Shown here piece after piece: positions 30,001 to 33,000 of a stretch of DNA of 64,000 nt (position 1 is the stretch's first letter; every line of letters begins with the position of its first letter). Source of the DNA: Escherichia coli (GTDB lineage: Bacteria > Pseudomonadota > Gammaproteobacteria > Enterobacterales > Enterobacteriaceae); the NCBI RefSeq assembly GCF_003991155.1, contig NZ_CP031293.1; one strand, 5' to 3'. Made by a program: the position numbers.

Positions 30001-33000
30001 CCACCGTTGAGTCATACCAGCAAACCGGGATACACGTTGCCCAGTCGATAATTGATTACTTCGCAGGAAGGGAGATAAAAAACGTGTTGTGAGTTCAGCG
30101 AACAAAGATTTTAAATGCTGAATTTACAATCCAAGTGCAACAAAAAAAGAAGTACTCATCAACTAGAATATAATTTTGTTTCCACACAAAAACCATTTCC
30201 AAATGATGAGTACTTCCTACCGACATCTTACAATAAACGAACGAGAAAAGATAATGATTTTACTCGCACAGGGCAAAAAACAAGCAGAAATTGCCAAAGC
30301 ACTGGGACGTAGCTCCAGCACCATTTCTCGCGAGCTGAAACGACACGCTCTAGAAAGCTACAGTGCAACGAACGCACAAAACAGCTATTTGAAGCATCGT
30401 CAAAATAGCAAAGCACAGCGCAAATTAGAGCAGCCTGAATATTTCAATTTGGTGCAAGAAAAGTTTCTGACAGAAAACTGGTCGCCCGAACAAATCAGCG
30501 CACGATTAAAATTGGAAAAATCTGAATTATCCATTAGTTATTCAACCATTTATCGTGGTATTTATTCAGGGTTGTTTGATATAGGCGAACGCAAAGCCAG
30601 TCGCAAACTGCGCCACAAAGGCAAAACACGGCATACAAAAAATCATCATGAAAAACGTGGCAAAATTCAGATATCCAACCATTTGAACGACCGTCCCATT
30701 TCGGCGCAAAATCGCAGTCGCTTTGGACATTGGGAAGCCGATACCGTACTGGGTAAAGCGGGTGGAGCTTGTTTGCTGACGCTGACGGAACGCAAAAGTC
30801 GTTTTGAGTTGGTGAAGAAAATTCCTGCCAAAAAAGCCGAAGCAGTCCAAAAAGCCATGATTGAATTGCTGGATTCACATATATTGCGGTCAATTACGCC
30901 AGACCGTGGTAAAGAATTTGCCCAACATCGTTTGGTAACAGAAGCACTGGGTGTAGAATTTTACTTCCCCGAGCCGCATCAACCGTGGACACGGGGAACG
31001 AATGAAAATACAAATGGGTTACTTCGTGAATACTTTCCGAAGCACCAAGACATCAATCAGTGGAGCGAAGTTGATATTCAACAGGTGATCAATAAACTGA
31101 ATTTACGACCACGTAAATGTTTAGGTTGGAAAACACCTTATGAAGTTTACTTCAAAAAATCGTTGCACTTGGTTTGACAATTCAAGATACAAAAAAACCG
31201 CAATCTGTGAAACACATTGCGGCTTATCAGCATCATAAGTGTTGGTTGCGGGGGCCGGATTTGAACCGACGACCTTCGGGTTATGAGCCCGACGAGCTAC
31301 CAGGCTGCTCCACCCCGCGTCACCGTACTACTTTACTTCATTAAATTTTGATTGGTTGCGGGGGCCGGATTTGAACCGACGACCTTCGGGTTATGAGCCC
31401 GACGAGCTACCAGGCTGCTCCACCCCGCGTCACCGTACTGCTTTACTTCATCAAATTTTAATTGGTTGCGGGGGCCGGATTTGAACCGACGACCTTCGGG
31501 TTATGAGCCCGACGAGCTACCAGGCTGCTCCACCCCGCGTCCGTGGATGCGCACTATACTCCGCTCGCGTTTTCATGCAACCTTTTTTTTACCCAGATCA
31601 CGGATTTGGTATGATTTTGAGCAAAAACAAATCACTAAAGCCTATTTTTTGTGCAAAATTTGCGTCAGGGAGAGGCTGCTCATTTCATTAAACGCGGCGG
31701 TTTGTTATCTTCGTTGCGCCTTATTTTTTAACCTGAAGAAGAGAACAATGAAAGGACGTTGGGTAAAGTACCTTCTTATGGGCACGGTTGTGGCAATGCT
31801 TGCCGCCTGCTCTTCCAAACCAACCGATCGCGGACAGCAATATAAAGACGGGAAATTTACCCAGCCTTTCTCTCTGGTGAACCAGCCAGATGCCGTTGGC
31901 GCGCCGATTAACGCCGGTGATTTTGCCGAGCAAATTAACCATATCCGTAATTCGTCACCGCGTCTGTATGGCAACCAGAGTAATGTTTATAACGCGGTGC
32001 AAGAGTGGCTGCGCGCAGGCGGTGATACCCGCAATATGCGCCAGTTCGGCATTGATGCCTGGCAGATGGAAGGTGCCGACAACTATGGTAACGTGCAGTT
32101 TACAGGCTATTACACGCCGGTAATTCAGGCGCGCCATACCCGCCAGGGCGAGTTCCAGTATCCTATTTACCGTATGCCGCCAAAACGTGGTCGTCTGCCG
32201 TCTCGTGCGGAGATCTACGCAGGAGCGCTGAGTGATAAATATATTCTCGCTTACAGTAACTCCCTGATGGATAACTTCATTATGGATGTGCAGGGTAGCG
32301 GGTATATCGACTTTGGTGATGGCAGTCCGCTTAACTTTTTCAGCTATGCAGGGAAAAACGGTCATGCCTATCGCAGCATTGGTAAGGTGTTGATCGACCG
32401 TGGCGAAGTGAAAAAAGAAGATATGTCGATGCAGGCGATTCGTCACTGGGGCGAAACACACAGTGAAGCTGAGGTTCGCGAGCTGCTGGAACAGAACCCG
32501 TCTTTCGTCTTCTTTAAACCGCAATCTTTTGCACCGGTGAAAGGGGCAAGTGCGGTGCCGCTGGTTGGTCGCGCTTCAGTTGCGTCCGATCGTTCCATTA
32601 TCCCGCCTGGTACAACCTTACTGGCAGAAGTGCCGCTGCTGGATAATAACGGCAAATTTAACGGTCAGTACGAACTACGGCTGATGGTGGCGTTGGATGT
32701 CGGTGGTGCAATCAAAGGCCAACACTTCGATATTTATCAAGGTATCGGGCCGGAAGCCGGACACCGCGCAGGTTGGTACAACCACTATGGACGTGTTTGG
32801 GTGCTGAAAACCGCCCCGGGCGCAGGTAACGTCTTTAGCGGCTGATGTGTTATTCTGTATACCGTTTTGACGGATACGACAGGGTGAGGGATAACCTCGC
32901 CCTTTTTAATTCTGAGGTGCTATGTCTGTGGTAATTAGTGATGCATGGCGTCAGCGTTTTGGTGGCACAGCGCGTCTGTATGGTGAAAAAGCGTTGCAAC

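Follow-up and report, generated by a model that had tools for sequence, protein, structure and literature searches.

What occupies the gap between amiC and the initiator-tRNA genes of Escherichia coli, and how did it come to lie there? The question is raised by a 64,000-nucleotide stretch of the E. coli contig NZ_CP031293.1 (assembly GCF_003991155.1), referred to here as the window. Three tandem initiator-tRNA genes, the metZWV operon, are separated there from amiC by low-GC accessory DNA and an insertion sequence (IS). The locus is metZWV, very probably with a layered island hotspot in the amiC-metV gap, visited by three independent occupants: a phosphotransferase system (PTS) module, a type VI secretion system (T6SS) module and the IS30-family element ISApl1. 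The system in the window is already known, as it consists of metZWV, the PTS half of the pathogenicity island (PAI) at metV, PAI-metV, and ISApl1.

Occupancy of the amiC-metV gap

Empty sites for comparison were provided by a K-12 derivative (L003) and strain ETEC4069 (L002). The distance from amiC to the last tRNA gene is 73-74 bp in both, and this spacer holds the amiC terminator and a tRNA terminator of another type than that of the window. Homology between the window and the empty sites stops 2-3 nt past the amiC stop codon on one side and within ~10 nt of the tRNA 3′ end on the other. It follows that the variable segment begins right beside the tRNA and takes in the terminator of the tRNA operon. 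An insertion point at the tRNA 3′ end relative to empty sites, together with a deviant GC content, is the pattern of a tRNA island. An initial interpretation of the window, termed here the sequence-only reading, had placed an island beside the tRNA, and the breakpoint lies where that placement requires. The same reading had the accessory DNA start immediately beyond the terminator. It does adjoin the 3′ side of the last tRNA, but the terminator itself falls inside the variable segment when compared with K-12, and the first stretch beyond it is the right end of ISApl1.

The states of the gap were counted in a census of 5426 complete E. coli genomes by four junction-specific searches. The gap is empty, with a K-12-type junction, in 3501 of the 5426 genomes. 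The PTS module alone, which is the state of the window minus the IS, occurs in 381, a PTS + T6SS junction in 956, and the T6SS module alone, set in a K-12-type spacer, in 249. The remaining genomes are unplaced by the four junction queries, and the few that were examined have IS insertions or deletions in T6SS genes. All four combinations of presence and absence occur, and the PTS and T6SS modules are therefore independent of each other.

The PTS module

The first occupant is a 5.5-kb PTS/catabolic module of five genes (Table 1), which replaces the whole 73-bp K-12 spacer, beginning just past the amiC stop and reaching the tRNA 3′ end. The GC content of the module is 40.6%, against 52-53% in the flanks. 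A PTS sub-cluster, c3405-c3410, has been described as a separately conserved part of PAI-CFT073-metV (PMC2831201), the island c3385-c3410 of uropathogenic E. coli CFT073, and pafR, the regulator of this cluster, has been studied (PMC8882828). The antiterminator, EIICB, aminotransferase, SIS and dehydrogenase genes expected of c3405-c3410 are all found beside amiC at the metV locus of the window. The module is also syntenic with that of the extraintestinal pathogenic E. coli (ExPEC) strain AF22, a carrier of the full island, with 97% nucleotide identity. On the published description, the gene content and the identity to AF22, the module appears to match c3405-c3410.

The full PAI-CFT073-metV is not present, as no T6SS cluster stands between the PTS genes and metV in the window. 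Between the dehydrogenase stop codon and the terminator there are only 24 nt and ISApl1. The window shares with PAI-CFT073-metV the locus and the position of the PTS cluster beside amiC. It differs in the absence of the ~29-kb T6SS half and of the partial tRNA repeat that divides the two halves, and in having ISApl1 in the tRNA-proximal position instead. Deletion of c3405-10 is said to cause a fitness defect, a result attributed to Lloyd et al. in 2007 and 2009 that is not used as evidence here.

The antiterminator gene is preceded by a leader with the stem aggcaaggc/gccttgcc followed by T9, and this leader hardly varies among E. coli, Citrobacter and Atlantibacter. By analogy with the bgl and sac systems, it holds a putative element like the ribonucleic antiterminator (RAT) of BglG/SacY type, overlapping a terminator. 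An Rfam E-value search of 24400-31800 returned the tRNAs only, plus one sub-threshold chance match inside the IS.

Repeats and recombinases at the PTS module

No distal direct repeat, the mark of an integrase-mediated tRNA island, was found for the PTS module. The sequence-only reading had pointed to a weak resemblance to the tRNA 3′ end at 24671-24700. Either the tRNA or just the 30 nt at its 3′ end was locally aligned with 24606-24900 on both strands, with 500-1000 shuffles as the control. The resemblance is present, but it scores at the shuffle mean, with 449 of 1000 shuffles as good. The bases that match the tRNA (TGG and CGGAT) are TGA and CGAAT in other Escherichia alleles. Part of this stretch aligns with the Citrobacter modules, which stand beside a different tRNA, and it is therefore part of the upstream region of the module. 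With a chance-level score and matching bases that are not conserved, the stretch was rejected as an attachment (att) repeat. The 14-mer TGGTTGCGGGGGCC, searched for with up to two mismatches over the whole window, occurs only in the three tRNAs. The PTS module was checked for a copy of the tRNA 3′ end in E. coli, E. whittamii, Atlantibacter and two Citrobacter species; no match rose above chance, with 151-833 of 1000 shuffles as good.

Recombinase genes give a similar picture. The annotation of the near-identical genome NZ_AP021933.1 lists no tyrosine or serine recombinase in its collinear 63 kb, and neither an integrase nor an integrase remnant is annotated in any of the contexts examined. 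The statement that the window has no integrase gene holds to that extent, but it overlooked the gene next to the tRNA at the junction, which encodes an IS30-family DDE transposase and not a tyrosine/serine recombinase. Nor was the island as unresolved as it had seemed, since its PTS part is the already described part of PAI-metV (PMC2831201). Islands with P4-type integrases, such as the pheV and leuX PAIs, resemble the window in lying directly 3′ of a tRNA gene and in their deviant GC; unlike them, the window module lacks both the integrase and the direct repeat. The PTS module offers no positive evidence that it integrated site-specifically into the tRNA.

These results bear on whether the module entered the metV 3′ end by means of an integrase, as the first layer of a tandem accretion to which some lineages later added the T6SS module, its own integrase and distal att repeat having since been lost or mutated past recognition. 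Such an entry is possible but doubtful. None of the five contexts has a repeat above chance, the matching bases at 24671-24700 vary between alleles, no integrase or remnant is annotated in the contexts examined, and the left breakpoint is the amiC stop codon and not an att-like sequence. What speaks for it is the position within ~10 nt of the tRNA 3′ end, a GC content ~12 points under the flanks, and the use of metV as an att site that the neighbouring T6SS module proves. The terminator of the module is also homologous to the terminator on the tRNA side of the T6SS module and to that of Atlantibacter, and the same module stands in the same orientation at the 3′ end of a tRNA-Asp gene, probably aspV, in two Citrobacter species.

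The PTS module in other genomes

To find relatives of the module, the aminotransferase was used as the query in a single scan of species-representative genomes, which reaches close relatives. The whole module is found at the amiC-metV site of E. whittamii (94% nucleotide identity), of a divergent genome labelled E. coli (90%) and of Atlantibacter hermannii (72%). In two Citrobacter species the whole module lies 3′ of the tRNA-Asp gene (72-73%; L011 7568-12807 and L013 7568-12801). This gene is probably aspV, because open reading frames (ORFs) of 245 aa and 155 aa (dnaQ, rnhA) and 814 aa (fadE) are found there together with Pfam domains of the yafV/gmhA/yafJ neighbourhood. No integrase or tRNA-gene (tDNA) repeat was found at the Citrobacter tRNA-Asp loci of the module. 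The GC content of the module is 39-47% against 48-58% in the flanks, 10-13 points lower in every host, and the divergence between genera is star-like, at 72-75% nucleotide identity.

This distribution raises the question of polarity. A module ancestral at amiC-metV in Escherichia and Atlantibacter, with the 73-bp K-12 spacer as a secondary deletion and no insertion within E. coli, would account for its same position and orientation in A. hermannii and E. whittamii. It would also suit the star-like divergence between genera and an Atlantibacter terminator that resembles the PTS-type one and not that of K-12. This history is unlikely, as the GC content is strongly deviant in all hosts and in Citrobacter the module stands at tRNA-Asp instead of metV. 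The K-12 spacer, moreover, has amiC and tRNA terminators of its own, both well formed, and shows no trace of homology to the ends of the module, and 65% of E. coli genomes are empty. The representative genomes of other species gave no match, which is a weak point as the scan reaches close relatives only.

Two further proposals are together very improbable. The PTS module could be the cargo of an integrase-less element that lands 3′ of different tRNA operons without a tDNA repeat (metV in Escherichia and Atlantibacter, tRNA-Asp in Citrobacter), or the tRNA array of one to four copies could promote island turnover by unequal recombination.

The reading preferred here, of independent layers in the gap, would have the PTS module as an old acquisition, immobilised at the tRNA flank, whose integration machinery and scar have been lost. 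Homologous recombination in amiC, the tRNA genes and mltA would now account for its gain and loss within Escherichia. The E. coli alleles of the module are 90-97% identical (24866-30092 compared with L005, L010 and L014), and this difference of up to 10% exceeds what would be expected of E. coli core genes. At 94%, the allele of E. whittamii is nearer to the window than are some alleles of E. coli itself, and this suggests recombination between lineages or between species.

The T6SS module at metV

The second occupant is a ~29-kb T6SS module with a tDNA-repeat scar of site-specific integration, which is seen in other strains and is absent from the window. A T6SS downstream of metV has been reported (PMC3032704), and metV has been described as a hotspot of integration (PMC7545054). 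SPI-20, which is related to the metV T6SS, occupies aspV in Salmonella arizonae and has no repeats there (PMC2907695).

Precisely at its distal junction, the T6SS module has a perfect copy, in direct orientation, of the final 14 nt of the tRNA. This repeat is present in AF22 and in E956, a strain of avian pathogenic E. coli (APEC), both of which carry PTS + T6SS, and in SCU-106 and SW07164, which carry the T6SS module only. Its score was reached by 3-5 of 1000 shuffles, and these cases served as positive controls for the alignment test. Ending in these 14 nt, the perfect repeat is 41 nt long in AF22 (L004 25746-25786, L006 10384-10424) and 17 nt long in SW07164 (L007 20201-20217, 26590-26606). 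The module lies between the tRNA and either type of spacer, flanked by exact repeats of 14-41 nt, which shows that the T6SS module does use metV as an attachment site. The earlier view of the tRNA array as an attachment context is borne out in this respect, for the T6SS module of other strains.

The metV T6SS module resembles the P4-type integrase islands in its partial-tDNA direct repeat. The AF22 island differs from them in having no integrase: none is annotated in AF22, the one T6SS island that was covered end to end, nor in the parts of E956, SCU-106 and SW07164 that were covered.

A gene for a MucR-family regulator is located at the distal end of the T6SS module in T6SS-only genomes (L008 6281-6829; L007 20475-21023) and is missing from the PTS + T6SS form. 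The 41-nt repeats of PTS + T6SS genomes could yield the PTS-only state by deletion.

ISApl1 at the junction

The third occupant is a recent copy of ISApl1, which has evidently jumped into the 24 AT-rich nucleotides that part the dehydrogenase gene from the terminator, in this strain only. The window is collinear with E. coli WP2-W18-ESBL-08 (NZ_AP021933.1) at 99.93-100% identity over 64 kb, and the sole structural difference is a 1070-bp ISApl1 insertion flanked by a duplicated AT. The element lies 24 nt past the dehydrogenase stop codon and, on its other side, 3 nt beyond the terminator U-tract, leaving both intact. None of the 5426 complete E. coli genomes searched has ISApl1 at the amiC-metV site, because the best match covers just 85% of the query.

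The identity of the element is clear from its size of ~1070 bp, its single DDE transposase and its 2-bp target-site duplication (TSD), the features of ISApl1 and the IS30 family, and from ends that form imperfect terminal inverted repeats. It is 99.9% identical to 403 plasmid-borne ISApl1 copies, and the matching E. coli genome records annotate the element as ISApl1. A 2-bp TSD and T-A-rich targets are typical of ISApl1 (PMC5821093). ISApl1 as the vehicle of mcr-1 in Tn6330 is like the window copy in its 1070-bp length, 99.9% identity, 2-bp TSD and AT-rich target. The window copy is unlike Tn6330 in being a solitary chromosomal copy, and neither a second ISApl1 nor mcr-1 is present within the 64-kb window.

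The element is located exactly between the PTS module and the terminator, which would suit an ISApl1 that carried in or rearranged the accessory DNA, the island junction being an IS-mediated event. This is extremely unlikely. The module, with no IS and an uninterrupted target site, is present in a genome whose sequence on the two sides of the insertion is 99.99-100% identical to the window. The intact 2-bp duplication indicates a simple insertion, only one ISApl1 copy is present in the window, and hundreds of genomes, as well as other genera, have the PTS module with no IS. The IS-free genome NZ_AP021933.1 refutes ISApl1 as the agent that formed the island.

Points against the layered reading

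Several considerations count against a history of three independent occupants, or limit parts of it. The exchange of the PTS module by recombination is deduced from allele divergence and clean breakpoints at gene ends, not from phylogenetic incongruence. The module may have been inserted into a K-12-type spacer, or it may be ancestral and have been deleted in most E. coli. The equation with c3405-c3410 is drawn from a published description and from gene content, not from an alignment with CFT073. No recombinase was found to go with the T6SS repeats, in AF22 as a whole or in E956, SCU-106 and SW07164 in part. The metZWV promoter discussed below is a sequence reading only.

The metZWV array and its signals

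Three tRNA-Met(CAT) genes, all on the minus strand, are the complete ARAGORN yield of the 64-kb window. The three genes are identical 77-mers with the sequence CGCGGGGTGGAGCAGCCTGGTAGCTCGTCGGGCTCATAACCCGAAGGTCGTCGGTTCAAATCCGGCCCCCGCAACCA, in which the CCA is encoded. Tandem Repeats Finder (TRF) describes the array as 2.7 copies of a 110-nt period with 98% matches. The CAU anticodon of the bacterial initiator tRNA is found in all three copies (ARAGORN anticodon cat). Read from the sequence, the initiator hallmarks are an unpaired C1 x A72 and G29-G31:C39-C41. The gene ends are 5′ CGCGGGG ... CCCCGCA ACCA 3′ and the anticodon arm is TCGGGCTCATAACCCGA. The identical gene is present in the K-12 derivative, ExPEC AF22, E. 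whittamii and Atlantibacter hermannii. The spacers between the tRNAs of metZWV are removed by processing.

ORFs and the RefSeq annotation of NZ_AP021933.1 give the gene order at the locus as argA, amiC, five low-GC genes, the three tRNA genes, mltA and tcdA. The tandem tRNA-fMet genes lie between amiC and mltA and run divergently from the latter. The array is thereby recognised as the canonical metZWV operon of E. coli, an ordinary housekeeping locus. It shares with K-12 the identical 77-nt gene, three tandem copies, the 110-nt period, the amiC and mltA flanks and the orientation; the downstream terminator and the entire amiC-metV spacer are the other allele. The metZWV nomenclature and the G46 isoform are given in bioRxiv 10.64898/2026.04.16.719103. 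The array has one copy in ETEC4069 (L002 2281-2357), three in the window and in K-12, and four in AF22 (L006 10411-10817), a variation from 1 to 4 that is drawn from these few strains and not from a population-wide count.

The terminator of the tRNA operon, hairpin with U7, folds at -22 kcal/mol (z = -5.4), and 0 of 200 shuffles were equally stable. A simple consensus terminator scan did not call it, because the stem has an internal bulge. Both the intrinsic terminator 3′ of the array and the three identical 77-nt minus-strand genes with 33-nt spacers had been recognised by the sequence-only reading, and the fold, ARAGORN, Rfam and sequence comparison agree with it. The terminator is a 'PTS-type' allele, CCGCAAT...ATTGCGG, which differs from the K-12 terminator. 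It shows homology to the terminator of Atlantibacter and to that placed beside the tRNA by the T6SS module, and none to that of K-12.

Upstream of the array is a candidate operon promoter, with an upstream A-tract and a GC-rich discriminator. A consensus scan made no call for it, because its -35 matches in only 3 of 6 positions. One promoter probably drives metZWV.

Table 1. Positions of the features of the amiC-metV locus. Coordinates are those of the window, except for the one that carries an L number, which refers to a comparison locus.
Feature	Position	Strand	Basis
amiC, left core flank	23352-24605	+	annotation; alignment
PTS module replacing the 73-bp K-12 amiC-metV spacer	24608-30116	+	ORFs, Pfam, RefSeq annotation, GC
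Rejected candidate att remnant	24671-24700	+	chance-level similarity to tRNA 3′ end
Leader upstream of antiterminator gene	24779-24852	+	alignment
CAT/PRD antiterminator	24863-25687	+	ORF, Pfam
PTS EIICB	25719-27299	+	ORF, Pfam
MalY/PatB-type aminotransferase	27299-28474	+	ORF, Pfam
SIS-domain isomerase	28477-29073	+	ORF, Pfam
D-2-hydroxyacid dehydrogenase	29145-30092	+	ORF, Pfam
TSD AT, left copy	30115-30116	.	comparison with uninterrupted site gattttaaATacaaaaaaa of L001
ISApl1 (IS30 family), intact, 1070 bp	30117-31186	+	99.9% identity to plasmid copies; domains
ISApl1 transposase ORF	30212-31177	+	HTH_38 and rve domains
TSD AT, right copy	31187-31188	.	comparison with uninterrupted site of L001
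Intrinsic terminator of tRNA operon	31190-31225 (hairpin 31195-31225, U7 31192-31198)	-	fold; alignments
tRNA-fMet1 gene, promoter-distal (metV position)	31243-31319	-	ARAGORN; Rfam RF00005 61.4 bits
Last 14 nt of metV-position gene	31243-31256	TGGTTGCGGGGGCC on + strand	identical to repeat flanking T6SS module in other strains
Inter-tRNA spacer, 33 nt	31320-31352	-	sequence comparison
tRNA-fMet1 gene, middle copy (metW position)	31353-31429	-	ARAGORN; Rfam RF00005 61.4 bits
Inter-tRNA spacer, 33 nt, 3 differences from the other	31430-31462	-	sequence comparison
tRNA-fMet1 gene, promoter-proximal (metZ position)	31463-31539	-	ARAGORN; Rfam RF00005 61.4 bits; identical to K-12 copy
Candidate operon promoter, TTGCAT-16 nt-TATAGT	31553-31580	-	sequence reading
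mltA, right core flank, divergent from tRNA operon	31748-32845	+	ORFs, annotation
14-nt tRNA-end repeat, T6SS module junction	L008 6010-6023

Significance

metZWV, the PTS half of the metV island and ISApl1 can be confidently annotated in the window, which is mostly of housekeeping value. The chromosomal ISApl1 marks a lineage exposed to the mcr-1 mobilome, which is epidemiologically relevant and not a new mechanism. The census and the tDNA repeats of the T6SS module present 'PAI-metV' as two independently acquired modules, of which only one has an integration scar. This two-module view of PAI-metV refines the current understanding of the island and does not change it.

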